Notes under the pieces: model-generated | The model's input: only the letters and a program-made list of their open reading frames with translations | What the model was told of the DNA's origin: nothing | The model's database searches: none | Assembly: GCA_043817155.1 (NCBI GenBank) | Contig: JBDRHE010000059.1 | Location: 97 to 64,096, forward strand | Direction of reading: 5' to 3' | Origin: Candidatus Omnitrophota bacterium | Lineage (GTDB): Bacteria; Omnitrophota; Gorgyraeia; JABMRN01; RBG-13-46-9 | Length of the DNA: 64,000 nt | Made by a program: the position numbers and the translations under genes | In this document: positions 15,951-47,308 of the stretch, in pieces | Layout of the letters: the number at the start of each line of letters is the position of its first letter | Position numbering within the stretch: the stretch's first letter is position 1

Positions 15951-16694
15951 TTATTGTCCGTGTCTTTTAAGCCAATATTCTACCAGCGGCATCTGCCATT
16001 CATAATCTACGTCGAACCCGCCCCATTGTTTTAGCGGATATATTTTTTGCCCCATCCACTTCTGCGGAAGGAGACCTGCCTGGAGATTTTCGAGGCATCG
16101 TGGCCTCACGATAGAGGCCCCCATATCGGCAAACCAGACATCACCCTGCGAGTCTCTGTCGCAATTCAGTGTTTTTGGATCGCCGAAAGCTTCAAATGGC
16201 ACAAACGGCTTTAACAATCCGTCTTCCGCGATCCTTCTTGCTCTCAGCGGACTCCACATGTTATACCGCGATACGGTAACGGCAGAATCGTACTGCGGCT
16301 TGTCTTTCAGAACATTTATCCCTTGAGATAATGTTTCCGACGTAATCGTTGGGGCATTACACATGAGCAAAACTATAAGCTCTATTTGCTCACCCTTGTT
16401 CCTTTCTTTTGCGACTTCGTAGGCGTGAACATAAACATCCTCCCCAAGGGCGCTATCCGCGCATAACCGTGGAGGCCTTTCGATTACTTCCACACCGTTA
16501 GACTTCGCAAGTACCGCAAGGCGGTCATCATCAGTAGAAAGATATATTTTATCCACTAGAGCGCAACCCCTGGCGGCTTTCATCGGGTAACTGGCAAGCG
16601 GCTCTCCTAATACTTTTTTCAAATTCTTTCCGGGAAATCCCTGGCTCATCTTTCTCCCCATAAGTAAAGCAACTATCATTGTCTTACACCTCAC
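15951..16694 (-). CDS. Acylneuraminate/ulosonic-acid cytidylyltransferase family (CMP-sugar synthetase)
   Basis: N-terminal ALLMGRKMSQGFPGKNLKKVLGEPL matches the CTP_transf_3 P-loop region; adjacent SDR mirrors the ptmB-ptmA arrangement. Confidence 0.7.
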   Translation of the reverse strand: MRCKTMIVALLMGRKMSQGFPGKNLKKVLGEPLASYPMKAARGCALVDKIYLSTDDDRLAVLAKSNGVEVIERPPRLCADSALGEDVYVHAYEVAKERNKGEQIELIVLLMCNAPTITSETLSQGINVLKDKPQYDSAVTVSRYNMWSPLRARRIAEDGLLKPFVPFEAFGDPKTLNCDRDSQGDVWFADMGASIVRPRCLENLQAGLLPQKWMGQKIYPLKQWGGFDVDYEWQMPLVEYWLKRHGQ

Positions 16695-18184
16695 TTAAAA
16701 TATTTACTAAAATAAATATCCCTTAACTCGCCGAGCATCCGGTCTCCTTCATGCGTTAACCGTTCGGCTACCTTGATGTTATCGAAATAGGTCTTGGGCA
16801 TCTTGACATATAGTGGAAACGTCCTGACGAGCCCCTTTATTTGATCTGGCGGAAACTGCGGCATATTCAGAATGGAGCTCCTCATAAGGTTGGCTGTTTT
16901 TGCCTCTGGATCGAGATACCCCTTATCGATGCAATACTTTCGTAGCGGTATGCCCCTGTAAGGCACAAAGAAATAGGCATTTATGCTATCCGCTTTTATT
17001 TGCCTGTTTAAATTTATCGTATCGAAGACAAGGTCTCTTGTCTCATCGGGAAAGCCGATTATATTATTCACGGTAACAGGGATTCTACTTGTTTCAAGAA
17101 TCGTGAAGGCATCTATGACTTGCTTATTGGTAAAGTTCTTTCTTAAAACGTCTTTTCTGAATTTCTCGTTGCCCTGTTCTATGCCGATCGAGATCCTGTC
17201 GCAGTTCATATCTTCGAGCATCTTTATCTTTTTTTCGGTTATGGTTTCGATCCGCGTCTGGCACCAGAACGGCAACCCTATTTCTCTTATATATTCTTTC
17301 GCGAATTTATCGAGGTCTTCTTCTTCTCTCGCAAAAAATGTTTCGCTGTTGAAATAGATGTAATCGGCTTTATGTTTCTCGATCTGGAATTTCAACTCCT
17401 CGATTATTCTCGGTATCCGCTTTACCCGAAAATACTGGTTTTGACCCGCATCCAGGTACATCTTTCTTTTTAAGGGCGCCGCGCAGAATGAACAATTAAA
17501 CGGGCAACCCCTGTCCACGGAAATAGGTATCATCCGGAATACCTTACCCTGCATCGGCCTGAATAAGCGCTTTTCCTCAAACGCGCTAAAATCTTCATAA
17601 GGAAGATTATCCAAATTCGCGAGTTCTCCGAAAGTATTTTTGTAAATCTTTCCATCTTTTTTTATCCAGAGATTATTTATTGAGGTTATATCCTTATTGT
17701 CCCTTATTTTTACGCAGAGCTCAACCAGGGCTTTTTCTCCCTCGCCTATGCATATGGAATCGACATTTTCATTCTTTATGACCTCTTCCGGAGAGAATGT
17801 CGGACGGACGCCGCCAACTATAACATGCGCACCCTTATCTTTTACGCATGAAACTAAATCTATCCCGAGATCATAGGTATCATCGGTAGAAGAGACCCCT
17901 ATTATATCGGGCGCGTACTCGCAAACGGTCTTCTTGAAATCATCAAATACATCAGCGTCTTTATAGCTGACGCCCTTCTCTTCAAGGTTAAAGGGCCGAA
18001 GCTGCATATGTTCTACCCTTATTTCATCAACACTTTTTTCGGCCGTTCGGTAAAGAGTTGTATCAAATAGCTCTACTTCCATGCCGGCTTCTTTAAGACA
18101 GGCTGATAGTAAAGCTATATTAGTAGGCAAGAGATTCACCATCTGGAGGTTGGGATAGACCAGGAGTACTTTAAATTTACCCAT
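16691..18184 (-). CDS. Cobalamin-binding radical SAM enzyme
   Basis: B12-domain-like N-terminus (IIGVSSTDDTYD...VIVGGVRPTFSPEE); DRGCPFNCSFCAAP; start set at MGKFKVLL just after the upstream stop. Confidence 0.8.
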   Translation of the reverse strand: MGKFKVLLVYPNLQMVNLLPTNIALLSACLKEAGMEVELFDTTLYRTAEKSVDEIRVEHMQLRPFNLEEKGVSYKDADVFDDFKKTVCEYAPDIIGVSSTDDTYDLGIDLVSCVKDKGAHVIVGGVRPTFSPEEVIKNENVDSICIGEGEKALVELCVKIRDNKDITSINNLWIKKDGKIYKNTFGELANLDNLPYEDFSAFEEKRLFRPMQGKVFRMIPISVDRGCPFNCSFCAAPLKRKMYLDAGQNQYFRVKRIPRIIEELKFQIEKHKADYIYFNSETFFAREEEDLDKFAKEYIREIGLPFWCQTRIETITEKKIKMLEDMNCDRISIGIEQGNEKFRKDVLRKNFTNKQVIDAFTILETSRIPVTVNNIIGFPDETRDLVFDTINLNRQIKADSINAYFFVPYRGIPLRKYCIDKGYLDPEAKTANLMRSSILNMPQFPPDQIKGLVRTFPLYVKMPKTYFDNIKVAERLTHEGDRMLGELRDIYFSKYFK

Positions 18185-19211
18185 TTGCGCCTTCCCTCTC
18201 CTGTAGTTTAAGTATTTCGCTGTCCCTGAGGTAACAGCCATCGCACGAGGGAACTTCGTGAGCCAGGCCACTCTTATGGGCATCTCGCAGCTCCTTAAGT
18301 TTTGCGCATTTCCATGCATGCTTAAGTGTCGTCTTATTTATCTTGCCAAGCTCAAGAAGGCCGTCATCATCATGATTGCAGGGCAAGATGGTGCCGTCCC
18401 ACCAAACGGCCATTCGCTGCCATATTTGAGGACATGCCCACTTAAACGGCACTCCTCTTTTCTTCTCTTTCATCTCTTTATAATCAAGAAGCGCGACTTC
18501 GTTGGCGCGACTTTGCCAGAACTCTTTATAGGTTCCAAAATCCGATTCGATCTCTGGAAGCATCACCGTTTGGATCCTCACCTTGGGATGCTCCACATTC
18601 ATGCTCCTTTTTAGACTGTTTAGCTTCTCGATGTTTGCAAGCACGGTCTCGTATGTCGCGCCCGCCCTGTATCTCTCATACACATCCTTTGTATAGCCTT
18701 CGAAAGATATCGAGATCCTGTCAAGCCCGGCATCGATCAGTTTTCGCGAAATACCTTCGGTAAGGAGCATGGCGTTGGTATTGAAATATACGTCTATGAG
18801 GCCATGTTTTTTCGCGTAGCGCACGAACTCGGCAATGCGGGGATGAAGAAGCGGCTCTCCCCTTATGTTGAACTTAACACCGTATAAATTGTTGTCGGCG
18901 CCTTCATCGATAACGCTTTTCACCGTATCATATGAGATAAGTCCCTTCCTTATCGTCTTACCCCTGAAAGTTGTCGCGCAAAAAGAACATTTCAGATTGC
19001 AGGCGCTTGTTGCCTCAATGTCTATAAAAAGCGGGAAGTCTCCGGCATAAAACCGGAGAGGCCACGTCTGCCATTTTTCGCGATATTCAGCGAATCTCCT
19101 GTCCTTATTCTTCAGTATCTCTTCGCCTGCCACATGGCGGAAATTGGAATTCACCTCGATTGTGGCAAGACCTTTTACACTATATTGCTTATTCATCGCT
19201 CTATCGTCCAC
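18177..19211 (-). CDS. Radical SAM / SPASM-domain enzyme
   Basis: ACNLKCSFCATT; C-terminal CPQIW...CNHDDDG...CDGC auxiliary-cluster motifs. Confidence 0.8.
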   Translation of the reverse strand: MDDRAMNKQYSVKGLATIEVNSNFRHVAGEEILKNKDRRFAEYREKWQTWPLRFYAGDFPLFIDIEATSACNLKCSFCATTFRGKTIRKGLISYDTVKSVIDEGADNNLYGVKFNIRGEPLLHPRIAEFVRYAKKHGLIDVYFNTNAMLLTEGISRKLIDAGLDRISISFEGYTKDVYERYRAGATYETVLANIEKLNSLKRSMNVEHPKVRIQTVMLPEIESDFGTYKEFWQSRANEVALLDYKEMKEKKRGVPFKWACPQIWQRMAVWWDGTILPCNHDDDGLLELGKINKTTLKHAWKCAKLKELRDAHKSGLAHEVPSCDGCYLRDSEILKLQEREGANG

Positions 19212-20326
19212 CTTTTAGCTTTTGAACTAAATCTTGCGAATTCCTTGCCCATAAATCTTCTCTGGCAGTAAAGACAGCTGCCCTGAATATCGCCTTTTAT
19301 AACCACTTCCCGGAAACTCACCATCTTCGGTGTATTGAAATCATAATCTTTATGTATGTTACCTATGTTTCCCCCGTGGCTAAGATGGCAGCAGTATGAA
19401 ACATCGCCATCCGAATTAAAGCAGAAGTAATACCAGGGCTGGACGCATTTCGCCTCCCGAAATGAAGGTGATTCGGGATCAAAGATGTGCGGCAGGCGAA
19501 CGTCAAACGGAAAATTACGCCTCTCAAGCATCTTCGCGAGGAAAATTCGTGTATTTTCATCCTGGAGCGTAAGCGGCGTGTAGCCTTTTGATCCGTGAGG
19601 ATTTATATTATGAAAAACCACGAAACGAGGTTTTATTCTCTCTGATAGTTCCAGCATTTTATCTATAGCCGCGATATTCCCGGTCGAAAGCAGGTATGAC
19701 ACCGAAAAGTTCATATCTCTTTCCCTTAACATGCCAAGCCCCTCCATTATCGAATCAAATCCCGCTTGAGCGCCTCCTCTGGCTTTCTCATATGATTCGT
19801 AATCGTAGGCGTCCATACTAACGTTGATATAGTCCACCCGCGAAAGTCGGGAGATCTTATTTTTTATAAGGACGCCGTTGGTGGATATCTTGACGGTCAA
19901 ACCATGGTCCTTGCATATGCTAACAAGGTCTTCGATCTCGGGATGCAAAAGCGGTTCGCCTCCTGTCAGAAAAACAGTCTCAGCCATCTTAGGGGCTTTG
20001 TATTTCTCAAGCGCAGCGCGAAATTTCTCCGCGGTTATGTAGCTGGGAGTGAACTTATCAGGATCCCTGAGAAGATACAGGCACGTCGGACACCTCAAGT
20101 TACAATTGTCAGTGATTGTGGCCACAAATATCGGTGGAATAAAATCAATTTTTGATCTTCGCAGCACGCTTCTATCATATCGCAACCTGTTTAGATGCTT
20201 TTTGATGCTCCCGGGTTTTCTAATTGTTTTGTAAGGCATTCTCAAAAGCCCCATGTACCTATCCGGTAGTTTAGGCCTGAGATTGCGTTTTACCTGTTTT
20301 TTGCTATACGCTAAATTGTGCATCAT
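19193..20326 (-). CDS. Radical SAM / SPASM-domain enzyme
   Basis: DNCNLRCPTCLY; C-terminal CVQPWYYFCFNSDGDVSYCCHL...CLYC. Confidence 0.8.
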   Translation of the reverse strand: MMHNLAYSKKQVKRNLRPKLPDRYMGLLRMPYKTIRKPGSIKKHLNRLRYDRSVLRRSKIDFIPPIFVATITDNCNLRCPTCLYLLRDPDKFTPSYITAEKFRAALEKYKAPKMAETVFLTGGEPLLHPEIEDLVSICKDHGLTVKISTNGVLIKNKISRLSRVDYINVSMDAYDYESYEKARGGAQAGFDSIMEGLGMLRERDMNFSVSYLLSTGNIAAIDKMLELSERIKPRFVVFHNINPHGSKGYTPLTLQDENTRIFLAKMLERRNFPFDVRLPHIFDPESPSFREAKCVQPWYYFCFNSDGDVSYCCHLSHGGNIGNIHKDYDFNTPKMVSFREVVIKGDIQGSCLYCQRRFMGKEFARFSSKAKRWTIER

Positions 20327-22088
20327 ACAACCTTTTGTACAATCCGTCTTTTTCTAAGAGATCCGCGTGACTGCCTTCCTCGGAAATGCCGCCTTCGCTC
20401 AAAACGATAATATTGTCGGCGTGCAAAATTGTCGAAAGCCGGTGAGCGATAGCTATGACCGTGCGATCCTTTGTCAGTTTATCTATTGATTCTGTTATCA
20501 AACGTTCTGTTTCCGTATCCAGGGAGCTGGTTGCCTCATCTAACACCAATATTTCAGGATTATGCATTATGGCCCTCGCGATGGAAAGCCTCTGCTTTTG
20601 GCCTCCCGAAAGCTTCACACCCCTCTCGCCAAGCACCGTATCGTAACCGCGCGGGAGGGCCGCTATAAAACTGTGCGCGTTTGCAGCCTTTGCGGCTCTG
20701 ACAAGTTCCTCCTGCGAAATATCCGAATGCCCGTACGCGATATTCGCTTTTACGCTCACGTTAAAGATAAAAGCATCCTGGGAAACAAACCCTATCTTTC
20801 TCCTCCACTCCTTTAGCGAAAGGTCCTTTATATCTATCCCGTCCACCAGTAAGACGCCTGATTTCAGATCATAAAATCGCAATATCAGATTCACGATAGT
20901 ACTCTTGCCGGCACCCGAGGCTCCGACAAGAGCGGTTATCTTACCATTGGGTATAACGATACTTACGTCTTTCAAAACCTCGCGGTCTTGCATATAGGAG
21001 AAGCTGGCATGTTTAAACTCAAGTGAGTGAGAGAATCTGTCGATCATCTTTTTTCCGCTCTTTAACGTCCTCTTGTCGCTCTCTTCACACATTCTCTCGT
21101 AGTTGGTAAAAGCCGCCAGATTGCTCATTGCCTCCGCGCGTCCGCTATTCAGGGTATTTAGCTGGGTGAGCGTCTTCCCGAGCACAAGCAGGTAGGTGGC
21201 GATTAATGGAAACGTGCCGGCAATGTTTATTTTAGATACGTTTATAGCCACCAAAAAACAGATGACGACGATAGTGAATATCAAAACTTCACATAAGGGC
21301 ATAATGAGATATATATATTTGTTATTCTTGAATTGAAAATGCCACAGATTTTTAACAACGGCTTTAAAATTTCTCTTTTCCAGGTCCTCGGTACTGCACT
21401 GCTTTATAAGTCTTATTCCGCCCAGGATCTCCGTAAGTTTATAATTGAAGTCGGCCAATGCGGCTGACAGATTTATCCCGATTTTCTCCAACTTCTTCAT
21501 GATAAATTCAAGCGGTAGAATAACCATCGCTATCAACGCAAACACAACGATGCTCAGCTTCCAAGAAATCAAAAATAGAAGTAACATATAGGCGCACACC
21601 CTTCCTGAAAGAGCTATAAACTGCAATACCGCCAACGCAAAATTGCCGATACGCTCCACTTCATAACTGATATTACTGATAATGTGGCCGATCTTCGCGC
21701 CGTCAAAGAAGGATGTATCGTATTCCAGTAACTTATTCATGAGCCTGAGGCGCAGATCTCTTACGAGATTAAACCTCAATCGGGCTATCAGAAGATTGGA
21801 AAAATATATAAATACATTTTTAAATATCACTAAAAAAAGCAGCAGTATGAAGATGGCGGATATTATGGTCCCCTGGTTAACTGCTTTAACTGAAAGATCT
21901 AAATTTTCTATAAAAGGTATCTTCTCGATTAGACCCGTAGCATCGGTCGTCATCGCCTTTATAAGAGGTATAAGCATCGCGAAACTCGCGCCTTCAAAAA
22001 GCGACGCAACTACAATTAAAAATACGACCGAAACAGAAAGAATCGGGTATCGCTTCAGATAATTATAGGCAATCGCTACGAGTGTCAT
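20304..22088 (-). CDS. ABC transporter, fused permease/ATPase (MsbA-like exporter)
   Basis: Six TM helices N-terminal; Walker A GASGAGKST; signature LSGGQKQRLSIARA; Walker B ILVLDEATSSLD. Confidence 0.9.
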   Translation of the reverse strand: MTLVAIAYNYLKRYPILSVSVVFLIVVASLFEGASFAMLIPLIKAMTTDATGLIEKIPFIENLDLSVKAVNQGTIISAIFILLLFLVIFKNVFIYFSNLLIARLRFNLVRDLRLRLMNKLLEYDTSFFDGAKIGHIISNISYEVERIGNFALAVLQFIALSGRVCAYMLLLFLISWKLSIVVFALIAMVILPLEFIMKKLEKIGINLSAALADFNYKLTEILGGIRLIKQCSTEDLEKRNFKAVVKNLWHFQFKNNKYIYLIMPLCEVLIFTIVVICFLVAINVSKINIAGTFPLIATYLLVLGKTLTQLNTLNSGRAEAMSNLAAFTNYERMCEESDKRTLKSGKKMIDRFSHSLEFKHASFSYMQDREVLKDVSIVIPNGKITALVGASGAGKSTIVNLILRFYDLKSGVLLVDGIDIKDLSLKEWRRKIGFVSQDAFIFNVSVKANIAYGHSDISQEELVRAAKAANAHSFIAALPRGYDTVLGERGVKLSGGQKQRLSIARAIMHNPEILVLDEATSSLDTETERLITESIDKLTKDRTVIAIAHRLSTILHADNIIVLSEGGISEEGSHADLLEKDGLYKRLYDAQFSV

Positions 22089-24046
22089 TTATAGACCTTT
22101 CTTTTGTCAAATTCTGTCTTTAATAATTCATCAAGCGGGGTACGGATGTTTTCCGGATAGATGTACGGCTCAAAAAGACGTCTCTCATTTACTTGACCCT
22201 TTTTCAAGTCAAATATGCCCCGTATAACATATTCCAGATCTTTCGTCTCTCTTGCGTGATATACGGCCGAGGGCTCTATCTTTCCGTTTTTTCCCGCATC
22301 GCAAGCCGATACGTGACGATAACGTCCATTTCCGCCATACAGCAATACCGGTATCCTATTCTGAAGCGCTTCTTCAATTGTTGTAGAAGAAAAACTCACA
22401 AGCAGTCCGGACATGCCAAGCACATCCCTAAAAGGCTCGTCGATACTCAATACCACTTTTTCCGAAAAAGGTATAAGTCGCTTAAGTGCCTCTGTGTTTA
22501 TTTCGGCGGTAGGACGGAATCTTATTACTAGGACCGTATCGGCCATCGCCGAAACGACACGCGCTAGATCGGAAATAGATCTGATATACTCATCCGGTGT
22601 TTCATATATGTGGAATCTTAAGATATTGCTTGATTTAGGCGTCCCTGCGTGTAAAACTACCTTTATATCTTCAAAATTATGTTTTCCGCCAAACATACTC
22701 TCGAACAATAACTCACTCTTCTCGAGGTTCACAGGGGTTCCCCATATTAAGGGACCGGTCTTAACAAGACGCGCGCGGGAAGGAAATTGTTCCAGATACC
22801 CTTCCGCGAGAGGAGATTGAAGCGCGTAAAGCGGGAACGGACCCCTTAAAAATAGCCTGCCGTGCTCTCCCCACTCGATCCGTTCATAGTCATCCTTTGG
22901 CTTAACGAACGAGCCGTGACTGATAAAAACGGAAGGTATCTCTCGCTTCCGGCACAATTCTGCAAGAATGAGGTCGTCTACCCTGTTTCCGTTTGTGACA
23001 ATGGCACTCGGCTGCAAACGGTCTATAAATTGATCGAGCGTTGCCGTCCATAAGAATTGCCCTACCGTATAGTGGGCGATGTTATCCCGCACTTTCCGGG
23101 ATATGACCCATCCAAACGGAATTCCCTTGTGCGAAAACATCTCTTCTTCTTCACGCATTGCCCGGTCCAGATTTGCGAAGACATTTTTCTGAGTCCCTAT
23201 AGTTTGCGACCGTCTCTTCCATAAAAGATTGAAAAGCAAGTCCGGGACATTAAAAGCGGGCACATATGGTCCTCCGAGATAATAGAATGATGCATTTGGC
23301 ATCTTGGCTTTAAGATCTCTTGCGAGGCTATCCATTCCGTACATCTTTGTGGTAAAAAGAATCACTTCTCTCTTATTGCCAAAAGCTTTTTTCACTAATG
23401 TCATTTTTTCTGACATTTTAAATTTTGCAAATCTCAAAAGGAATTTGGCCGCATCGCCTGCATGAAGTTTCATTGAAATAAGCAATGAATTCCCCCCGGG
23501 GATCTCTTTTTTTAAGAAATCCTCATAATTGAGATTCTGCGCTTGTGCAACTGACCTGGTAAAATATCCGAGATATCTCTCCTCCGGTTCTATGTAGACG
23601 CTCGACGTAGTTTTTCTCCCGAGGGAGGAGGCGTATAACGTCCCGGGTCTATGCATTTCCGTGGCGCTTGTTATAATCTCAATTATCCACAGACAGTAGT
23701 TAATGGAAAAACGTATTAGAAACAGAAACCAGTCTTTATAGGCCTCCCCGACACCCAGGTCCGGATCAGAGAAATTGACCCTCTTCTCTATCCATTCCAT
23801 AAGAATTTTAGATTTCTCAAACGCAGCGATACGCGAACCATCTCCGAAATAAGGCAATGTGCTTTCCGCTGAAATCCCATTTTTCGCCAGGTCGGACCGG
23901 ACTACCGGACTGGTAGCTATAGAAAGAGAATCTTCCGGCATAAGCGTCCCATGACCGGGGTTCTCTTTTACGAATTTCTCGATATCCAAAACAGTATCGA
24001 AGAAAAATATCTTTTTTAGTTTTTTTGGCATTTCGAACAAAACCAC
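22085..24046 (-). CDS. Large hypothetical protein (653 aa), candidate surface-carbohydrate biosynthesis transferase
   Basis: No confident family motif; alpha/beta repeats; context. Confidence 0.3.
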   Translation of the reverse strand: MVLFEMPKKLKKIFFFDTVLDIEKFVKENPGHGTLMPEDSLSIATSPVVRSDLAKNGISAESTLPYFGDGSRIAAFEKSKILMEWIEKRVNFSDPDLGVGEAYKDWFLFLIRFSINYCLWIIEIITSATEMHRPGTLYASSLGRKTTSSVYIEPEERYLGYFTRSVAQAQNLNYEDFLKKEIPGGNSLLISMKLHAGDAAKFLLRFAKFKMSEKMTLVKKAFGNKREVILFTTKMYGMDSLARDLKAKMPNASFYYLGGPYVPAFNVPDLLFNLLWKRRSQTIGTQKNVFANLDRAMREEEEMFSHKGIPFGWVISRKVRDNIAHYTVGQFLWTATLDQFIDRLQPSAIVTNGNRVDDLILAELCRKREIPSVFISHGSFVKPKDDYERIEWGEHGRLFLRGPFPLYALQSPLAEGYLEQFPSRARLVKTGPLIWGTPVNLEKSELLFESMFGGKHNFEDIKVVLHAGTPKSSNILRFHIYETPDEYIRSISDLARVVSAMADTVLVIRFRPTAEINTEALKRLIPFSEKVVLSIDEPFRDVLGMSGLLVSFSSTTIEEALQNRIPVLLYGGNGRYRHVSACDAGKNGKIEPSAVYHARETKDLEYVIRGIFDLKKGQVNERRLFEPYIYPENIRTPLDELLKTEFDKRKVYK

Positions 24047-25389: not shown

Positions 25390-26133
25390 TTACGCCCTAT
25401 TCTTGCTTAGTATCCGGTCATATCTAACCGATAGACCCGCGCCTCTTTTAAGGCCCTTGATCAGAGACTGTACCATCATAAGATCAGTCCGGCTCTTAAC
25501 GATCACAGCCGAGAGCTTGCTGACCGGATAGGTCCCAAACCTCCCACAGAAGAACGCATGCCCATTCCTTTCGAAGGTCTTCATAAAAAGATCTCTTCGC
25601 CATATCATTATCGAATATACAAAAGGTTGTACCGGTACAAGGTCCTGTGTTCTTGAGAAGATTGTGTCGATCTTAAAATTGATCGGTCTGCCCTTATGCA
25701 AACAGTGCACCTGCTCATTCTTGACTGTAATAAGTGAATCTAACCCGGACTTTACGAAATAAGTTACTACGTCCCTTATCTCCTTTGCCCCCTGCAAGGG
25801 TGAAGTCGGATTGACCCATGCAATGATATCGCAAGGATTCTCTTTTAAGAAGTCATAAACCACGCGGTCGGATTTGGCCTTGGATGTTGCCCATCGCTTC
25901 GGCCGTTTATAAAACTCTGCGCCATAGCGTTTGGCTATCTTCTGAAACAACGTATCCTCCGAATTAACGACTATACGGGTGAAAACACCGGACTCCTTTG
26001 CTGCCTGGATAGGATAATATATAAGCGGTTTCCCTGAAATAAGGGCCATGTTCTTCATCGCAAGTCTTGTACTACCCATGCGCGCCGGGATCATGGCGAC
26101 TATATTCTTTCCCTTAAACTTAAATCTTTGCAT
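25390..26133 (-). CDS. Acylneuraminate cytidylyltransferase family
   Basis: IVAMIPARMGSTRLAMKNMALISGKPLIYY P-loop region. Confidence 0.7.
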   Translation of the reverse strand: MQRFKFKGKNIVAMIPARMGSTRLAMKNMALISGKPLIYYPIQAAKESGVFTRIVVNSEDTLFQKIAKRYGAEFYKRPKRWATSKAKSDRVVYDFLKENPCDIIAWVNPTSPLQGAKEIRDVVTYFVKSGLDSLITVKNEQVHCLHKGRPINFKIDTIFSRTQDLVPVQPFVYSIMIWRRDLFMKTFERNGHAFFCGRFGTYPVSKLSAVIVKSRTDLMMVQSLIKGLKRGAGLSVRYDRILSKNRA

Positions 26134-31336: not shown

Positions 31337-31353
31337 CGGTCCTCCCTTACATT

Positions 31354-39399: not shown

Positions 39400-40594
39400 A
39401 GATCGCTCTCTTTCTGGGAGTGCTTTCTGATATTATAGTTTGATCGCATGGGCTTATTACCATGTTCCCCCATTTCATTTTGTAGGTATCTCCGGCATAC
39501 CGAATGGCCTGGTCTCTTTCTTTGCTATTATCAAACCCCTCCAGCAAACAATTTATAAAGTTGCCCATCCTCTCTCCTCCTCTGCCATCTCGGTAAGAGT
39601 CCAATTTGTCGGCATACGAAGACCAATCACCCAGGCGCGGATGATTGTTTGAATTCTCTTTATAGCTTTTTAACGTATTCATGAGCTCGCCTAAATCGTT
39701 AAAAATGAGCCTTCCGTATCCCCATTTATAGTATTTATGACCATTGAAGTTTGCGGGATCATAATGAACCCCTCTCTGCCCGGCAATTGCTACCTCTGCG
39801 ATAGCCGAAGCAATACCTATTCCCACAGTCATATCCGTACCGAACGAAACGCCGGAAGGCAAATAACCGACCATATCCTCGATCTTTTTGCACCTTCCGG
39901 TTCCGAGTGCCCTCTCAAGCAGGGGAAGAACGGAAGACAGGCTGTCCAGGATAAGATTGTTCTTAGATTTTATTATTAACCCAATGTCATCGTCTTGAAA
40001 TAACCACTCAAAAAATGCTTTATACAGCATCTCCACCGCGCCCTTGGCGATAGGGGTATGTGAGCTACATGCGTTATCAAAGAGGCTTATTATAAAATTC
40101 GCGCCTTTGTCTCTTAAAGCCTTGGAAATTTGCAATGACGATTCTACATTCTCTTCGGAGAATATGTCGATTGGATACCCGCATATAACGAATTTTTCAA
40201 TTCTGTCATGATTTACCTTGAAATAATCGAAATAATCTTTGTTCCAAATAAACATTATATGTTTTGGATGAAAACCGATATCAAAAAGATGGATTGGCGA
40301 TAGCTCCGATCGTTGTTTTCCTACAAGGACACCATTTTTATCCATGTCAAACGCTATGGCCTGGGCTATGTTTTCCGGTGACCCCTCTTCGGTTATATAA
40401 TGAACGCTGATATTAAAATGGTCGTAAAAAGAACGCCAGTAATAAACGCGTTCCGATAGAATATCACCCATTTTTACTATCCACTTTTCTGTAGGCCTTT
40501 CTGTTTTGTCTGCTTTTAAGGTCATGGCCTTCAAAATTTTAGGTGCTTGCCAGTAATGGCAATCTGTGCCGTTTTCAATGATACCTTGCTCCAA
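39380..40594 (-). CDS. Hypothetical protein (404 aa)
   Basis: No recognised motif. Confidence 0.3.
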   Translation of the reverse strand: MEQGIIENGTDCHYWQAPKILKAMTLKADKTERPTEKWIVKMGDILSERVYYWRSFYDHFNISVHYITEEGSPENIAQAIAFDMDKNGVLVGKQRSELSPIHLFDIGFHPKHIMFIWNKDYFDYFKVNHDRIEKFVICGYPIDIFSEENVESSLQISKALRDKGANFIISLFDNACSSHTPIAKGAVEMLYKAFFEWLFQDDDIGLIIKSKNNLILDSLSSVLPLLERALGTGRCKKIEDMVGYLPSGVSFGTDMTVGIGIASAIAEVAIAGQRGVHYDPANFNGHKYYKWGYGRLIFNDLGELMNTLKSYKENSNNHPRLGDWSSYADKLDSYRDGRGGERMGNFINCLLEGFDNSKERDQAIRYAGDTYKMKWGNMVISPCDQTIISESTPRKRAIYEKNNK

Positions 40595-40647
40595 AACTAC
40601 CCATCTAAAACCTTTGTCCTCTATGTCACGTATGACTTCTTTGCGTA

Positions 40648-41334
40648 TTACGAGGACCTTTCTTCCCCTATCAGCGTCATCGGCCGTATAACCCCTTTGG
40701 TAACATACGGAGTATTGTAACGCTTATCGAAATAAATCAGAACTTTTTCGGGTTTTATACCACTTTTTGCGTACCAGCACAGGTCGTTCCGTCTTGACGC
40801 GTCTAGACCCTCGGCGTAATGACAAGCAATAGCGTTCCGCGGTCTATCCTCCGCGGGCAGACAGTAATTCTTCTTGGTATCAAACAACCTGCGCTTAATA
40901 AGAACGACAAATTTCCTTAAGTGGTCACGGACTTTTTTTTTCAATAAATGGGCATGAGCTACATAATAAACCGCCCGGTTGTGCATAACTAATGGCACAT
41001 CTTCGAAAGACCAGCAGTTTTCTAACTCCGGCAATATACCTTCTCTCGGTATTGATACTGACTGCTCCCTCAAAGGTATATGCTTACCGGCGCGCCTATA
41101 CCATTGTATAACACATGCCTGGCGCACAAACGGAAATATCTCCTTTTTTATGGAGTATTGAAAATACAGCATGACCCTTTGGCTGGGCATCTTTTCAGCC
41201 ACTTCTTTATACGCATGCGAAGATGTAATGATATCCGATATGCGCAGTACATAGTCGAATGTTATGCGCTCGACTTCGTATCGAAGCGCAACACCTTCTT
41301 TGCATTTCATTTCTCCAAGATCATACTTTAACAT
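40648..41334 (-). CDS. Hypothetical protein (228 aa)
   Basis: No recognised motif. Confidence 0.3.
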   Translation of the reverse strand: MLKYDLGEMKCKEGVALRYEVERITFDYVLRISDIITSSHAYKEVAEKMPSQRVMLYFQYSIKKEIFPFVRQACVIQWYRRAGKHIPLREQSVSIPREGILPELENCWSFEDVPLVMHNRAVYYVAHAHLLKKKVRDHLRKFVVLIKRRLFDTKKNYCLPAEDRPRNAIACHYAEGLDASRRNDLCWYAKSGIKPEKVLIYFDKRYNTPYVTKGVIRPMTLIGEERSS

Positions 41335-42349
41335 TCAAGCTTTCCTTTTTTATTCCGGTCAGAGACGGGTAGGCTTCGACCCCTTCACCCGTTTTTTGCC
41401 AGTGATCATATCGCTCCTTTAACAACCCGTTCTCGAGGAGGATCTCATCCAGCCTTTCCCGGAAGGACCTTCTTATCTTAATCCCCGATAACTCATATCC
41501 AAAATGTTGCATAACTTTGTTGTTAACCAATTCGGCAAAGAATATTTCAAAAGGGTCTGCGCTCTTCTTCCATCTTCCGGCAGGGGCGCTGGATACAGTG
41601 TTCATTTTTTTATTAAAAGACGAGTCGCCGGTCCACCGGCGCCCCTGTCTATCCTTAAACTGCTTTACATCCAGCATAGCAGGCTCAAACTTTATCCTTA
41701 AAAATTTACAGAGTCTTTTTGCCTCGGTAAGTGGATTGTCGACAAAATTCTCATATTTCAGGATGTAATAGTTGTCTGGGTCAAGTGTCTCTCTGTACTC
41801 AACAGCCTTTTGGAATGAATGCTGTGAACAAAATACTGAATCAAGATAAGAATATCCTGGTTCGTACGTCATTTCTCTATAGCTACACAACACATCTCGC
41901 GGGTCCCTGAGAACATGAATCACTTTTCCCGAAGGAAACATCTGTAAAAAATTCGGGATCTGCCCCCAGCAAACATTCGTTTTTTCTCCCCATCCGGTTA
42001 CTATCTTCGCACAATCAGATGCCAGGGCTTTCATCACAATATCATAGATGTGCTTGTATTCGATTTTTTTGAGCTTCCGTATTTCGCTTATGGCTTTATC
42101 GAGATTAAATTCCATTTTCCATCTTTTTAATATGCGATCGTGGATTTCTTGTACAAGTCTCATAGCTTGATCGGCATCCCTTATCGGCTCGTATTTGCCG
42201 TAAGAAAACCTCATAAAATGGACGGAATCATATGTGACCCAAAGCTTAGAATGATTGTTAAGCATGCGACTGACAAGGGTTGTGCCGGAACGATATATGC
42301 CGGTAATAAATATTCTTGTTTCAAAACCAGAGATCATCTGTCGCCTCAT
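41321..42349 (-). CDS. Sulfotransferase (PAPS-dependent)
   Basis: 5'-PSB-like IFITGIYRSGTTLVSRML and 3'-PB-like VIHVLRDPRDVLCSY motifs. Confidence 0.75.
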   Translation of the reverse strand: MRRQMISGFETRIFITGIYRSGTTLVSRMLNNHSKLWVTYDSVHFMRFSYGKYEPIRDADQAMRLVQEIHDRILKRWKMEFNLDKAISEIRKLKKIEYKHIYDIVMKALASDCAKIVTGWGEKTNVCWGQIPNFLQMFPSGKVIHVLRDPRDVLCSYREMTYEPGYSYLDSVFCSQHSFQKAVEYRETLDPDNYYILKYENFVDNPLTEAKRLCKFLRIKFEPAMLDVKQFKDRQGRRWTGDSSFNKKMNTVSSAPAGRWKKSADPFEIFFAELVNNKVMQHFGYELSGIKIRRSFRERLDEILLENGLLKERYDHWQKTGEGVEAYPSLTGIKKESLNVKV

Positions 42350-43802: not shown

Positions 43803-45032
43803 TTACCGTGCCATATCTTCATAAACTGTTCTTCTCAATTTCCATTTGCCGTCTTTGTTTTCCCATAAATGGGGCGATCGAAATTTTTCACAAAGTTCCA
43901 AAAATTCCTCTTTCTCCATGCCGATATACTCCATTACTTCGTCAAAATACTTTATAGGAAATTCTCCGTCGAACCTCCGGACAAGGGCCTTTCCTTCCTC
44001 CCTTGTAAGGTGCTTGTTGCGGATCTCCTGGGAAGCATCATAGGTAGCCCGGCCGATACCGAACTTTATATAGGTTGCGTAATACTGCAATCCGTCTATG
44101 CGATCGTCCAGACTGTTATATTTACTGTAAGTCCCTTCTGTCCTTTCCGGGTTTGCCGCGAAACCGGTATGCTCAACGGCGTAATAATAGGACTCCTGGG
44201 GCGTCCATTTTAAGTAATAACCGAGATAGTTCACCTTGATTTCGGATCGTTCCAACTGCTTATAGTCAGCCGGCAGATAGGTCTGTATATCATTCGCTGT
44301 TAAGCCGTGCTTTTCCATTAACTCTTTAACGCTTGCGCCGGCAATGTAGATTTCATCTAAATGCCGCATTGTATAATACGATTTGCCCCTGAGAGACGTA
44401 TTGGTATCGGCAATGGGATTGCCGTATTCGGCTTCATTTTCGCCGTAAAAAACAAGCAGAATGCCGAGCCTGGTCGCGAGTTTCGGCGCCAGATTTTTTT
44501 GGCCCAGAATAAACGGTTGAAAAGGGTGTAACAGATTTCTGATAGCTAACCTGGTTAACAGAGCGTGAACCCTGCCGTTGTAATTAAAGGATATATTGTC
44601 AAAGCCGCCTACGTCGATCCAGTTTCTAAAATTCTTCCATCCGATCTCTGTGTAAATGATAGGCGGCCAGGTTACTGTAAGCGGGTGCATGCCATATTTA
44701 TATTTTAGAATATGCGCCGCGTATGCGCTGTCTTTTCCTCCGCTTCCGGGCACGATACAATCATAATTACCGTCTTTCCTTCTATATTTTTCGAGAAGTC
44801 TTAAAAGCTCTTCTTCGCGGGTTTTCCAATCAATCTCTTTCTTGCGTTCGGCAAAGCGACACGCGTCGCATACGCCTTCTTTATCAATAAAAAGTGTCGG
44901 CTTCTTCTGAGTTACCGTGTGCTTAAATTCAGGCACTGACGAGGGCCTTTGGTTCGACATAACACAGCGCTTACAAAACTTTACAACTTTCGGTAAGCCG
45001 TATTTTGCCTCGAGTTTTTGCGTTTCTGCCAT
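43803..45032 (-). CDS. N-acetyl sugar amidotransferase (WbuX/PseA/AglX-like, PP-loop ATPase)
   Basis: N-terminal Zn-ribbon CKRCVMSNQRP...CDAC; PP-loop CIVPGSGGKDS. Confidence 0.8.
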   Translation of the reverse strand: MAETQKLEAKYGLPKVVKFCKRCVMSNQRPSSVPEFKHTVTQKKPTLFIDKEGVCDACRFAERKKEIDWKTREEELLRLLEKYRRKDGNYDCIVPGSGGKDSAYAAHILKYKYGMHPLTVTWPPIIYTEIGWKNFRNWIDVGGFDNISFNYNGRVHALLTRLAIRNLLHPFQPFILGQKNLAPKLATRLGILLVFYGENEAEYGNPIADTNTSLRGKSYYTMRHLDEIYIAGASVKELMEKHGLTANDIQTYLPADYKQLERSEIKVNYLGYYLKWTPQESYYYAVEHTGFAANPERTEGTYSKYNSLDDRIDGLQYYATYIKFGIGRATYDASQEIRNKHLTREEGKALVRRFDGEFPIKYFDEVMEYIGMEKEEFLELCEKFRSPHLWENKDGKWKLRRTVYEDMAR

Positions 45033-45034
45033 CT

Positions 45035-45718
45035 CTATCTATTCTCCTTTTTTCTGATCAATTCAGCCCAATTTTGGTATATCTTAAGGCCCTGCCCGGC
45101 GCTTCTTTCCGGATGAAACTGACAGGCAAAAATATTATCACGCTCAAGACTTGAGCAATACCTGATGCCCTCATAGGATGTGTATGATAACACGCTATCA
45201 TGCGTATCCGGCGCCACAAAGTAGGAGTGCACAAAATACATGAATTCCCCATCCCGGATGCCCCTTAACAGCGAGTCCTCCCAATAATCACCCTTTTTAT
45301 CATCGGGCCTCTTTAACTTATTCCATCCCACCTGCGGCACCTTCATGCCTTTATTGGAATCCCTTCCGGAAGAAAAGTTGACAACGGAACCTTTTATTAT
45401 ATTCAGGCCCTCGTGAACACCGAACTCTTCACTTTTCGTAAGCAAAAGTTGCATCCCTAAACATATACCCATAAAAGGTCTCCCCGTACCGATAAAGTCT
45501 TTGATCGGGCCTGCCAGATCCAATTTTTTAATATTACGCATGGCAATTCCAAACGCTCCCACGCCCGGCAATATTGCCGAGTCGCTGTTTACTATACCGG
45601 CGCTATCTGAAGTAATAAAGGCGCTTAGCCCCGCGTGTTCACAGGCCCGCTTTATGCTGAACAGATTGCCCATACCGAAATCTATTATAGCAACGTTTGA
45701 CTTAGAATTTACCGGCAT
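45035..45718 (-). CDS. HisH-like class I glutamine amidotransferase (WbuY/AglY-like)
   Basis: VAIIDFGMGNLFS; GVGAFG; catalytic ICLGMQLL; FHPE. Confidence 0.85.
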   Translation of the reverse strand: MPVNSKSNVAIIDFGMGNLFSIKRACEHAGLSAFITSDSAGIVNSDSAILPGVGAFGIAMRNIKKLDLAGPIKDFIGTGRPFMGICLGMQLLLTKSEEFGVHEGLNIIKGSVVNFSSGRDSNKGMKVPQVGWNKLKRPDDKKGDYWEDSLLRGIRDGEFMYFVHSYFVAPDTHDSVLSYTSYEGIRYCSSLERDNIFACQFHPERSAGQGLKIYQNWAELIRKKENR

Positions 45719-46589
45719 AAACGTCTTTCCCCTTTAGCGCTTCCCTGCATGGTATCCCGTGTTCGGACAGGAAGAACTTTATCTCGCTTAAGTTTGTCGG
45801 TCTAATTTTAGAAAAGATACGTCCGCTCTTTGCATACTCGAGATTTCCTTCGAGAGTATAATCGCCTTCATTAATTTTTCTGCGTTTGATGAAATCGTAA
45901 TGCAGAATTGAGGCAAAGCTTACTGCGTCAGCCTTCCCGTCAATAATTACATCTTTAATGTGGCCGGTTTGGCCTGCGCCCCCACAGGCTATGACCGGGA
46001 TAGACACTGTCTCCGAGATTTTACGCGTTAACTCCAGGTCGTAACCGATCCCCGTTCCTTCGCGATCAACAGAGGTCAGCATGATCTCACCGGCGCCAAG
46101 TTCGGTAACCCGCAAGGCCCACTGGCATACATCCATTCCGGTATGCTCTCTGCCGTTGTCGGTAAAGGCCTGGTAGCTGCCATCCGGTTGCTTGATAGCC
46201 TCTATAGAAATAACGATGGTTGATGATCCGAATTCCCTTGAGGCTTCACGAATGATGTCCGGGTTATTGATAGCCGCGGTATTAAGACTTACCTTATCCG
46301 CGCCGGCACGCAAGACCTCTTTTATGTCCCGAAGAGTCCTTATCCCCCCGCCGACCGTCAGGGGTATAAAAATGTCCCTGGCTGTCTTCTCGATTATCCG
46401 ATTCAAACTGTTGCGCCCGTATAAGCTGGCGACAACATCCATATAGATAAGTTCGTCCGCTCCGGTTTCGTAATAATACTGCGCGAACTCTTCGGGTTTG
46501 CCCAGAACCCTCAGGCCTTCCAGGTGAATGCCCTTGACTAAATTGGGCCCTTTAATATCCAGACGCGGTATAATTCTTATGTATTTCAA
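45702..46589 (-). CDS. HisF-like cyclase subunit (WbuZ/AglZ-like)
   Basis: RIIPRLDIKG...DELIYMD...TVGGGIRTLRDIKEVLRAGADKVSLNTAA is the HisF (beta/alpha)8 signature. Confidence 0.85.
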   Translation of the reverse strand: MKYIRIIPRLDIKGPNLVKGIHLEGLRVLGKPEEFAQYYYETGADELIYMDVVASLYGRNSLNRIIEKTARDIFIPLTVGGGIRTLRDIKEVLRAGADKVSLNTAAINNPDIIREASREFGSSTIVISIEAIKQPDGSYQAFTDNGREHTGMDVCQWALRVTELGAGEIMLTSVDREGTGIGYDLELTRKISETVSIPVIACGGAGQTGHIKDVIIDGKADAVSFASILHYDFIKRRKINEGDYTLEGNLEYAKSGRIFSKIRPTNLSEIKFFLSEHGIPCREALKGKDVYAGKF

Positions 46590-47308
46590 AACCCGCTTTC
46601 CTTATTTAAACGTGAATCTATAACTGCTTTGGCTAACGTAAGATCTTTCCTGGTATCGATATCTACAACCGTTTCGTTTACAATCATCGCTTTAATCCTG
46701 TCGCCGTAAATCGAGTAAAGAAACCCCGCCTTATATGGAATTTCTTTTGTAAATTTTTTATAAAATTTCTGCGCTTCAAACACGAGTGTATGGCCGTCAT
46801 GAATCATAAGCTTAGGCAATGCCTGCCTTCTGTAATGCGCTTCCCTCTTCATGGGTAGTTCGCGGTCAGTAAATTCAAACATCCATTCCGGATGATACTT
46901 CTCGATTCTTTGCATACTGATGACGGCGTCATAACTCCGATTTTTTCTTAAAAAAACAATGGCATCATAAAATAATTGTGGATACCGCGTCGGAATATTT
47001 CCGTATACGAGACTGCAATATCGGTACCCGGCCCCCTCTCTCTCGATAGCATCTGCCAGTACGTCATCGATCCTGCTTGCGTCACCGCACAACTTGCTTG
47101 GCCTGCTGATGTATGGAATTTTCTTCCTTTTGCAATAACTTATTACCCGCTCAATATTTGTCGATACGACCGTTTTTACCTCCTTCCCCAGCGACAAAGA
47201 GTAATCGATAGCGTATTCGGCCGCCATTCTGCCCCTTATTCCTCTGGTGCACTTGTCTCTTAATCCCTTGCTGCCTTTTCTTGCGCACACAACTGACAAT
47301 GTTTTCAT
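46586..47308 (-). CDS. Acylneuraminate cytidylyltransferase family
   Basis: LSVVCARKGSKGLRDKCTRGIRGRMAAEYAI P-loop-like region; weaker than the other paralogs. Confidence 0.55.
   Translation of the reverse strand: MKTLSVVCARKGSKGLRDKCTRGIRGRMAAEYAIDYSLSLGKEVKTVVSTNIERVISYCKRKKIPYISRPSKLCGDASRIDDVLADAIEREGAGYRYCSLVYGNIPTRYPQLFYDAIVFLRKNRSYDAVISMQRIEKYHPEWMFEFTDRELPMKREAHYRRQALPKLMIHDGHTLVFEAQKFYKKFTKEIPYKAGFLYSIYGDRIKAMIVNETVVDIDTRKDLTLAKAVIDSRLNKESGF

Follow-up and report, generated by a model that had tools for sequence, protein, structure and literature searches.

Why should one bacterial gene array carry five genes of the cytidylyltransferase (CT) family whose members activate nonulosonic acids as cytidine monophosphate (CMP) conjugates, and no recognizable gene for making such an acid? 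The question is raised by a 64-kb stretch of DNA from Candidatus Omnitrophota bacterium (GenBank assembly GCA_043817155.1, contig JBDRHE010000059.1, positions 97 to 64,096), called the window here, in which about 56 minus-strand open reading frames (ORFs) form one continuous array of more than 63 kb with a GC content of about 0.44. Nonulosonic acids cap many bacterial surface glycans, where they affect surface charge and recognition by phages and by the immune system. To our knowledge, their known biosynthesis uses one CT per sugar and no radical chemistry. The family membership of the five proteins, their residue patterns, the conservation of the gene modules around them and the synteny of these modules were observed directly by comparison with related loci. 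The reading favored here, held with moderate confidence, is that each CT belongs to a conserved module of its own within a one-strand cell-surface-glycan array, and that the five comprise legionaminic acid (Leg)-type, tailoring and re-tooled copies.

Five divergent members of the NeuA family

An earlier note made from the sequence (the original prediction) had assigned five ORFs to the acylneuraminate-type CTs with a shared N-terminal P-loop region. All five were found at exactly the positions predicted, on the minus strand:

15951–16694, minus strand: CT1, Pfam PF02348 (CTP_transf_3), 55.1 bits
24016–25383, minus strand: CT2, amino acids (aa) 246–376 of this ORF, fused behind an N-terminal GT2 domain (aa 6–160), PF02348, 55.4 bits
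25390–26133, minus strand: CT3, PF02348, 75.9 bits
37665–38303, minus strand: CT4, PF02348, 81.7 bits
46586–47308, minus strand: CT5, PF02348, 28.2 bits, whole profile covered

The Pfam gathering cut-off for PF02348 is 22.6 bits. Family profiles were built from orthologs and compared by hhalign with a NeuA/LegF-type profile, to which all five families aligned over 208–223 columns with a probability of 99.6%–100% (CT5, 99.6%; CT1, 99.9%). The best NCBIfam model for all five was PseF, followed by the KdsB models. The PseF cut-off (TIGR03584, 205.7 bits) was missed by every copy, with 79.5, 73.9, 80.6, 136.4 and 39.0 bits for CT1 to CT5, and the KdsB models (TIGR00466, PRK05450) gave 19–70 bits against cut-offs of 155–281, for which reason a KdsB identity was rejected. 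Among solved structures, CMP-Neu5Ac, CMP-Pse and CMP-Kdn synthetases were better matches than KdsB for all five, the closest being NeuA (Neisseria meningitidis 1EYR; Vibrio cholerae 6IFD) and PseF (Aeromonas caviae 9FTB/9FTC). A MobA-like or IspD-like identity was rejected as well: the MobA-like family PF12804 gave weaker, sub-threshold matches to CT1 and CT2 only, the IspD family had no Pfam match to any of the five, and the hhalign probability against Escherichia coli IspD was at most 5% for all five families.

Pairwise identity among the five is 19%–37%, and each has orthologs at 43%–74% identity in other phyla. Recent tandem duplication was therefore rejected; at this mutual identity the five are old paralogs and not local duplicates, and in the favored reading each arrived with a conserved gene module of its own. 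The assignment of the five genes as real, old paralogs with the NeuA/LegF/PseF/KdsB cytidylyltransferase fold is thus confirmed, and the shared P-loop failed for one copy, CT2, which has an 8-residue deletion there.

Catalytic residues were numbered after N. meningitidis NeuA (1EYR), to which the five proteins and their orthologs were aligned using MAFFT and hhalign; residues 6–135 and 170–222 of this reference were verified against the printed 1eyr alignment, and its central 34 residues are presumed. In NeuA, the catalytic Mg2+ is coordinated by D209 and D211 (kcat falls 15,000-fold in D211A, and the D209A change is crippling), activity is lost or greatly lowered in R165A and Q166A, K142 is supplied by the partner subunit, and Q104, T106, N175 and Y179 are sugar-binding residues; the two subunits of a NeuA-type dimer share their active sites (PMC2901514). 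All of these residues are kept in canonical LegF-like proteins encoded around homologs of the amidotransferase gene wbuX (n = 30), in which the lid is 31–40 aa long.

Judged from these alignments, the full NeuA catalytic set appears to be kept only in CT1 and CT5, both with altered sugar pockets, so that only these two look like standard competent CMP-sugar synthetases. In the CT1 family (n = 7) the catalytic residues are all kept, with D-V-D at the Mg site, while the sugar pocket carries Q104→M/F, T106→N, S107→A, N175→D and Y179→S; the lid is 41 aa and the motifs are conserved in 7 orthologs. CT5, whose motif group in the alignment consists of two sequences from a family of at least 168 members, keeps R12, S15, K21, R71, D209 and D211 (D-I-D) with N22→C, and its sugar pocket has Q104→Y, T106→N, N175→D and Y179→L, with a lid of 31 aa.

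CT4 is the most NeuA/LegF-like copy of the five and keeps QPTSPLR, PNGAIY, VDIDT (D-I-D) and K21, with R12→K. It has lost, in frame, a dimerization/lid subdomain of about 30 residues (NeuA residues ~136–169, carrying K142, R165 and Q166). When it is aligned to 1eyr, residue 135 is followed at once by residue 170; its lid region measures 4 aa against 31–40 aa in 30 relatives, and its length is 212 aa against 226–280 aa in 81 relatives, among which the deletion is unique. With this subdomain gone, CT4 is probably impaired or re-purposed.

The P-loop of CT3 is canonical (R18, S21, K27, N28). At its Mg site, D209 is replaced by I/L and D211 by K (K213 in CT3) in 38 of 38 family members, among which no alternative invariant acidic ligand was found at this site; the lid is 27 aa. 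Stand-alone CTs encoded directly upstream of a GT2-CT fusion gene (n = 25) carry I/V-x-K (21), D-x-D (2) or D-x-H (2) at the positions of D209 and D211. In the CT2 family the P-loop deletion removes S15, K16 and K21, D209 is replaced by E (E430) and D211 by R (R432), each in 24 of 24 sequences, and Q104→E (E331) is invariant, with a lid of 28 aa. The CT2 domain keeps the NeuA R71 position and an STD motif, and its invariant polar residues at the former active site are E331, R337, R385, K388, H403, R408, E430 and R432. Because the Mg-binding aspartates are replaced by Lys or Arg, CT3 and CT2 would be unable to work exactly like NeuA. Across the set, P-loop Arg12 and Lys21 are both present in CT1, CT3 and CT5, CT4 has K for R12 and keeps K21, and in CT2 the deletion removes K21; the motif at the QPTSP sugar site differs by copy (QPTSP, NPTSP, CNAPT, GNIPT, EATFP).

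Conserved modules around the five copies

Gene neighborhoods were compared in 80 loci around WbuX homologs, 80 around GT2-CT homologs and several more obtained by exact-protein look-up, which carry L numbers here. The five CTs fall into four gene modules, A to D, which are met again in loci of other phyla. Co-occurrence statistics refer to 10-kb flanks of loci chosen through the two query proteins WbuX and GT2-CT. Two to four CT-like genes occur in 24 of the 71 loci of at least 18 kb (two in 9, three in 14, four in 1), so that multi-CT neighborhoods are common and normal in this gene context.

Module A contains CT5, a radical S-adenosylmethionine (SAM) protein and an amidotransferase trio:

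47320–48780, minus strand: B12-binding (class B) radical SAM protein, directly upstream of CT5; Pfam B12-binding and Radical_SAM, no NCBIfam equivalog
45702–46589, minus strand: WbuZ (HisF-like), 274.8 bits in NCBIfam, just below the cut-off of 299.7
45035–45718, minus strand: WbuY (HisH-like), HisH 189.7 bits against a cut-off of 105.4
43803–45032, minus strand: WbuX, N-acetyl-sugar amidotransferase, TIGR03573, 361.6 bits against a cut-off of 203.2

The acetamidino-forming trio WbuZ/Y/X, downstream of CT5, is conserved in 76–80 of 80 loci. In the Scalindua locus L002 the gene order is LegB, LegC, LegH, NeuB, LegG, PtmE, a B12-radical SAM protein (65% identity), a CT5-like protein (59%), HisF, HisH and WbuX, the Leg genes having been verified by Pfam. 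L166 has the same layout (B12-radical SAM protein, 69%; CT5, 55%), and a JGI contig of 118 kb carries NeuB, Epimerase_2, PtmE and radical SAM genes followed by a CT5 ortholog, with a SPASM-radical SAM gene between the B12-radical SAM gene and the CT5 ortholog. The CT5 orthologs of these three loci are 55%–60% identical to CT5. In L002 and L166, over the 12–21 kb that are readable, the CT5 ortholog is the only CT adjoining the Leg core and therefore occupies the LegF position. With CT5 orthologs following a Leg core in three other loci, and with the window cut upstream, the absence of NeuB from the window is less paradoxical.

Module A would thus be the tail of a legionaminic-acid-type pathway, in which CT5 would replace LegF and make a CMP-activated nonulosonate from a skeleton built by genes outside the window, WbuXYZ would turn an N-acetyl group into an acetamidino group, and the B12-radical SAM protein would add a radical step, most likely C-methylation; as a candidate, it could methylate the nonulosonate at carbon or tailor it by some other radical reaction. 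Evidence that amidation and other tailoring take place on CMP-sugars has been presented (bioRxiv 10.64898/2026.04.20.719630), and Fom3 is a class B radical SAM methylase that recognizes a CMP-conjugate (PMC8158854). The substrates, the order of the steps and the choice between the free acid and the CMP-sugar as the object of tailoring are read here from gene context and are worded conditionally throughout.

Module B consists of CT4 with one gene on either side:

38335–39399, minus strand: PtmE-like sugar-1-phosphate nucleotidylyltransferase, directly upstream of CT4; Pfam CBS and NTP_transferase
35797–37668, minus strand: carbamoyltransferase of the NodU/CmcH type, overlapping the end of CT4; Pfam Carbam_trans_N and Carbam_trans_C, NodU model 80 bits against an NCBIfam cut-off of 1000

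The order PtmE, then a LegF-like CT, is found in 65–69 of 80 WbuX loci, and the CT in that position is 33%–41% identical to CT4. Module B would keep the canonical pairing of a nucleotide-sugar feeder with a LegF-like CT.

Module D surrounds CT1:

18177–19211, minus strand: SPASM radical SAM protein, upstream of CT1; Pfam, no NCBIfam equivalog
16691–18319, minus strand: B12-radical SAM protein, its stop overlapping the CT1 start; Pfam, no NCBIfam equivalog
15180–15938, minus strand: short-chain dehydrogenase/reductase (SDR) of the adh_short_C2 family, directly after CT1; Pfam
14283–15155, minus strand: methyltransferase; Pfam
13370–14464, minus strand: D-2-hydroxyacid/phosphoglycerate-type dehydrogenase; Pfam
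12445–13365, minus strand: SDR epimerase/dehydratase; Pfam
11802–12518, minus strand: HAD phosphatase; Pfam

CT1 orthologs (56%–71% identity) occur with the whole or part of this module in L031, L093, L094, L104, L129 and L144, and an SDR, a 2-hydroxyacid dehydrogenase and an SDR epimerase lie next to CT1 orthologs in L094, L104, L129, L131 and L144. Module D may be a tailoring unit comparable to EpaA/EpaB, in which a catalytically intact accessory CT works with redox and radical enzymes; CT1 would re-activate a modified acid or keep the acid on a CMP handle.

Module C holds CT3 and CT2:

30128–31390, minus strand: Gfo/Idh/MocA oxidoreductase; Pfam, NCBIfam matches sub-threshold only
29081–30118, minus strand: Ldh_2-family 2-hydroxyacid/ketoacid dehydrogenase; Pfam, NCBIfam matches sub-threshold only (224–244 bits to the sulfolactate and ureidoglycolate dehydrogenase models)
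27427–29097, minus strand: B12-radical SAM protein, between Ldh_2 and CT3; Pfam
26120–27229, minus strand: class I SAM methyltransferase, between Ldh_2 and CT3; Pfam
24016–25383, minus strand: GT2::CT2 fusion; Pfam GT2 (N-terminal) and PF02348 (C-terminal)
22085–24046, minus strand: 653-aa protein, downstream of GT2::CT2; no Pfam or NCBIfam family, homologs annotated as hypothetical

The GT2-CT fusion family has at least 3774 homologs at E < 1e-10, the best 120 of which are 62%–73% identical and span Omnitrophota, Brocadiaceae and Planctomycetes. Gfo and Ldh_2 are both present in 24 of the 30 GT2-CT loci with at least 5 kb upstream, and a family census of 84 GT2-CT loci counted Gfo in 43, Ldh_2 in 41 and CT3 in 42; when the flanking ORFs were clustered without bias, the partners of GT2-CT that ranked highest were CT, Gfo, Ldh_2 and the family of the 653-aa protein. 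Orthologs of the methyltransferase and the B12-radical SAM protein hold the same place in L081, L083, L098, L103 and L107. Module C is a very widespread, uncharacterized unit, represented by L081 in Omnitrophota and by L083 in Brocadiaceae and present in numerous marine and freshwater metagenomes.

An AlphaFold2 (AF2) model of GT2::CT2 had a predicted local distance difference test (pLDDT) score of 75. In Foldseek searches its N-terminal domain matched the GT2 enzymes WrtF, PcManGT and TarS, its C-terminal domain matched CMP-Pse, CMP-Neu5Ac and CMP-Kdn synthetases with template-modeling (TM) scores of 0.7–0.77, and the first matches of the whole model were two-GT-A-domain polymerases. The 653-aa protein was modeled with a GT-B fold (AF2; pLDDT 89.5, pTM 0.91), its closest structures in the Protein Data Bank by Foldseek being UDP-GlcNAc 2-epimerases, NeuC included, at 11%–16% identity; a homolog occurs in 21–25 of 84 GT2-CT loci, before or behind the fusion gene. 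Invariant motifs of its family (HGSH, SxSST..E, GRYxH) suggest a nucleotide-sugar enzyme, and from its model it is putatively a glycosyltransferase or an NDP-sugar epimerase/hydrolase-like enzyme. The acceptor that CT3 and CT2 activate or bind is probably a different one of more anionic character, or else they pass a CMP-linked sugar on to the GT2 domain of the fusion; alternatively, the two may act as a pair, with CT2 as the CMP-sugar-binding or -transferring domain for GT2.

Several extra genes occur in related loci (L113:15185–16924, L107:14078–17360, L083/L084 and L116:3378–4295) but not in the window. These are an HMGL-like aldolase domain fused to an MptE/Maf-like domain, an HpcH/HpaI aldolase, a HAD protein, a Fer4/LdpA_C protein, a genuine KdsB-like CT (155 bits to Pfam, VMIQGDEPM motif) and, in some loci, a KdsA-like DAHP_synth_1 protein. 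The related neighborhoods hint at NeuB-independent routes to ulosonic acids.

Known systems and competing explanations

The nearest characterized relatives are LegF/PtmB of the Campylobacter-type Leg pathway, which share the fold and catalytic residues with CT4 and CT5 and whose PtmE-like and WbuX/PtmG-like partners are encoded in the window. The differences are that LegB/C/H/G/I of that pathway have no counterpart here, CT4 lacks the LegF dimerization/lid subdomain, CT5 is distant from LegF and PseF (39 bits to the PseF model) with a different sugar pocket, and a B12-radical SAM gene before the CT, as before CT5, is not known from characterized Leg pathways. With NeuA and PseF the five share P-loop, R71, QPTSP, PNGAIY and DxD motifs, but identity is low and the matches of CT1 to CT3 lie mostly in the N-terminal half; relative to NeuA, the Mg-binding D209/D211 are missing from CT3 and CT2, K21 is missing from CT2, and CT4 lacks residues ~136–169. 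KdsB and KpsU belong to the same superfamily (PF02348), and the CT2, CT3 and CT4 families aligned to E. coli KdsB with hhalign probabilities of 95%–98%, but the KdsB QGDEP motif is absent from the CTs of the window.

More than one CT in a locus has precedent. The Campylobacter flagellin glycosylation locus is one known two-CT locus. The Kuenenia cluster has two legF homologs, with tailoring at the level of the CMP-nonulosonic acid (bioRxiv 10.64898/2026.04.20.719630), and in Acinetobacter baumannii prophages EpaA (a CTP_transf_3 domain with a reductase), present besides PsaF, and the SDR EpaB convert Pse to 8-epi-Pse (PMC12053666). The likeness to EpaA/EpaB is one of gene arrangement: an accessory CTP_transf_3 protein with redox partners, as in CT1 followed by an adh_short_C2 SDR, or CT3 linked to two oxidoreductases. 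EpaA is fused to an aldo-keto reductase, whereas in the window each partner has a gene to itself, and SPASM and B12 radical SAM proteins are among the partners. With Fom1/Fom3 (PMC8158854) the shared idea is the CMP group as a recognition handle for radical methylation; the CT domain of Fom1 is of another family and acts on a phosphonate, and the window encodes no phosphoenolpyruvate mutase or other phosphonate gene. Relative to the literature found, three things are new: the coupling, within Leg clusters, of the CT5 subfamily to a B12-radical SAM gene, the module of CT1 and its two radical SAM genes (SPASM and B12), and the Gfo/Idh/MocA, Ldh_2, CT3 and GT2::CT2 unit with non-canonical active sites.

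Were each of the five to make its own CMP-ulosonic donor, five CMP-sugars would go into one complex glycan. All five belong to PF02348 and each has a different motif at the QPTSP site, related loci carry several ulosonate synthases (NeuB, KdsA-like, HpcH/HpaI aldolase), and candidate transferases are at hand in the window (three GT2s, the GT-B protein, the GT-C). Against this, the window has no ulosonate synthase of any type, and CT4 without its lid, CT3 without its Mg aspartates and CT2 without K21 and D211 show changes of the kind that abolish or cripple NeuA (PMC2901514), which makes five separate donors decidedly improbable. The idea of several distinct CMP donors in the original prediction is thus partly supported: the catalytic sets are complete in CT1 and CT5 only, and the number of five is not supported; one to three CMP-nonulosonate derivatives, together with accessory or re-tooled CT-fold proteins that serve tailoring, are more likely. 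Its other proposal, sequential re-activation of intermediates, gains an experimental precedent in EpaA/EpaB (PMC12053666), CT1 being followed by an SDR of the same family, and would apply here by analogy.

That some copies are not enzymes at all, CT4 decaying and CT2 serving as a CMP- or CMP-sugar-binding module for GT2 or as a pseudo-subunit of CT3, much like the tandem GT-A-like domains of bifunctional polymerases, appears rather unlikely. The lid deletion of CT4 is unique among 81 relatives, and CT2 lacks K21 while keeping the R71-position residue and STD motif; a stand-alone CT almost always precedes the fusion, NeuA-type dimers share active sites (PMC2901514), and two-GT-A-domain polymerases rank first in the whole-fusion fold search. 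CT4, however, has an uninterrupted ORF in which all the other catalytic motifs survive, and CT2 is under strong purifying selection, its invariant active-site polar residues suggesting chemistry and not just binding. We regard it as unlikely, too, that CT3 and possibly CT2 are re-tooled for an anionic nucleophile supplied by Gfo/Ldh_2, for instance a 2-hydroxy acid or sugar acid bearing a phosphate or carboxylate, forming a CDP- or CMP-linked acid in place of a 2-keto-3-deoxy sugar, with a basic residue replacing Mg chemistry as in IspD-type enzymes. In its favor are the invariant K213 of CT3 in place of D211 beside an intact P-loop R18/K27, the tight linkage of CT3/GT2-CT to Ldh_2 and Gfo (24 of 30 loci) with NeuB within 10 kb in a minority, and the 224–244 bits of Ldh_2 to sulfolactate/ureidoglycolate dehydrogenase models; in IspD, Lys27 and Lys213 stabilize the transition state with a phosphate nucleophile (PMC5020098). 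It is opposed by the NeuA/KdsB-like (95%–100%) and not IspD-like (~5%) hhalign results for CT3 and CT2, by an alignment anchored on the C-terminal E/D-D-L in which IspD K213 appears to line up with NeuA D209 and not with D211, and by the lack of an identified kinase or mutase for a phosphorylated substrate in module C. The Lys27/Lys213 analogy was kept as a mechanistic idea only, with no sequence relationship. Finally, 13 radical SAM proteins, about a dozen methyltransferases, a carbamoyltransferase, two sulfotransferases and two ABC exporters would also suit a secondary-metabolite cluster (nucleoside- or aminoglycoside-like), its CTs adding transient CMP handles of the kind used by Fom1/Fom3 in fosfomycin biosynthesis. 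Three GT2s, a GT-B protein, a PMT_2-type GT-C, an ArnC/PgfS-like GT, PtmE and WbuXYZ in the same window, relatives with full Leg pathways, Wzx-type flippases and Maf-like domains, and the spread of the modules over many phyla within polysaccharide-type loci make it very improbable.

The favored reading, five CTs in four conserved modules of one surface-glycan array, has several results set against it. Every minus-strand ORF of 100 aa or more (56 in total) was scanned with Pfam without a match to NeuB, DegT aminotransferase, PglD-type acetyltransferase or Epimerase_2, and none of NeuB, LegC, LegG or a LegB equivalent was found in the 64 kb inspected. The locus set for legionaminic acid (LegB, LegC, LegH, LegG, LegI/NeuB) is thus represented in the window only by PtmE-like, CT and WbuXYZ proteins. 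No gene for a Leg/Pse-type 4,6-dehydratase was found in the window; one SDR (12445–13365) has a weak, sub-threshold LegB match (105.7 bits against an NCBIfam cut-off of 475), so that the earlier statement that the window lacks a NeuB synthase, an aminotransferase and a 4,6-dehydratase largely holds. NeuB lies within 10 kb of the four-gene unit of module C in only about 4 of 17 full-length loci, and a nonulosonate substrate for CT3/CT2 is accordingly not indicated. None of the five CTs reaches an NCBIfam equivalog cut-off, so that all substrate assignments rest on context; in the CT5-family locus L167 no upstream homolog of the B12-radical SAM protein was detectable; the radical SAM proteins are proposed by analogy to tailor nonulosonates; and in the literature no paper was found that links radical SAM enzymes, nonulosonic acids and CTs.

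The remaining array and its significance

Thirteen radical SAM proteins are encoded in the 64 kb, 7 with a B12-binding and 3 with a SPASM domain (Pfam), an unusually high density; none of them reaches a curated NCBIfam equivalog cut-off, and neither do the Gfo, Ldh_2, SDR and carbamoyltransferase proteins. Pfam further identified about a dozen class I methyltransferases, 2 sulfotransferases, 1 carbamoyltransferase, 2 ABC half-transporters, YdjC, HAD, several SDRs, 2-hydroxyacid dehydrogenase, Ldh_2 and Gfo/Idh/MocA proteins in addition to the WbuX/HisH/HisF trio and the CBS-NTP_transferase (PtmE-like) protein. The glycosyltransferases are three GT2 proteins and a PMT_2-type GT-C, both by Pfam, and the GT-B-fold protein, by structure model. 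Since the array contains the carbamoyltransferase (35797–37668) together with two sulfotransferases (41321–42349 and 50571–51515, minus strand), the product is likely to be both carbamoylated and sulfated, a combination likely to be unusual among bacterial glycans. The two half-transporters are:

20304–22088, minus strand: ABC half-transporter, candidate flippase/exporter; Pfam ABC_membrane and ABC_tran
48777–50546, minus strand: ABC half-transporter paralog, 28.5% identical to 20304–22088

An ortholog of the first lies downstream of a homolog of the 653-aa protein in L081, L088 and L103. Together with the GT-C near the 3′ end, they suggest that the glycan is built on a lipid carrier, flipped, and transferred on the far side of the cytoplasmic membrane.

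The GT-C (2815–4806) belongs to a 3′ block of seven genes (2815–10233, minus strand), in the order PgfS/ArnC-like polyprenyl-phosphate GT2 (9250–10233), methyltransferase, YdjC deacetylase (7572–8468; HpnK-like, 187 bits against a cut-off of 232.6), methyltransferase, radical SAM protein (5262–6788; B12 type, BchE/HpnJ-like), 141-aa ORF and GT-C. The part from GT2 to the radical SAM gene is kept in L081. By analogy, the block resembles ArnC/ArnD/ArnT or HpnI/HpnK/HpnJ in its logic, in which a lipid-linked sugar would be made, deacetylated, radically remodeled and transferred.

Elsewhere in the array, two adjacent methyltransferases of 224 and 228 aa (53991–55348, minus strand) are 43% identical and are its only clear recent tandem duplication. 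ORFs 40648–41334 (228 aa) and 39380–40594 (404 aa) correspond to one protein of 618–624 aa in L083, L103 and L113, which has no Pfam family; the reading frames of the two ORFs differ in the window, through a frameshift or a true split. The 404-aa ORF is 27% identical to the C-terminal half of a 677-aa ORF (32808–34841). A relationship of the 677-aa protein (U677) to the 653-aa protein (U653) as paralogs was rejected, no BLASTP similarity being found between them. The downstream end of the array is at about position 820: positions 1–820, 3′ of the last gene, are free of tRNA genes, Rfam matches and ORFs of more than 75 aa and mark its 3′ boundary. Upstream the array runs beyond position 64000, where a split transketolase (62669–64000, minus strand) has a complete C-terminal subunit and an N-terminal thiamine pyrophosphate-binding subunit truncated by the window end. 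GT2::CT2, the 653-aa protein and CT5 are 100% identical to proteins encoded on a 137,462-bp contig of a Candidatus Omnitrophota metagenome-assembled genome (locus tags ABID09_04410 and ABID09_04510), of which the window takes up 64 kb. Neither a tRNA nor any Rfam family, cobalamin riboswitches included, was detected when the window was scanned for them.

CMP-activated C10 ulosonic acids have been reported with their enzymes unassigned (bioRxiv 10.64898/2026.04.20.719630), and the radical SAM–CT pairs are candidates for making them. We put forward tentatively, as the less probable outcome, that the B12 and SPASM radical SAM proteins coupled to CT5 and CT1 carry out C–C or C-methyl chemistry on Leg-type acids or their CMP conjugates, yielding CMP-ulosonic acids of C10 and above, and that, separately, Gfo/Ldh_2/CT3/GT2::CT2 is a new acidic-sugar pathway with Lys/Arg-swapped NeuA folds. 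The finding rests on sequence and context. Three things are suggested by the locus and its relatives, which come from Omnitrophota, anammox Planctomycetes and marine bacteria, among others: Leg-type pathways with a built-in B12-radical SAM protein and a CT subfamily of their own; accessory CTs accompanied by redox and radical enzymes for tailoring; and a GT2-CT fusion, strongly conserved, with a CT-like domain that would be unable to work in the manner of NeuA. They offer glycobiology and radical SAM enzymology concrete enzyme candidates for CMP-linked acids left unexplained by nucleotide-sugar mass spectrometry and, possibly, new biocatalysts for modified sialic-acid-like sugars.

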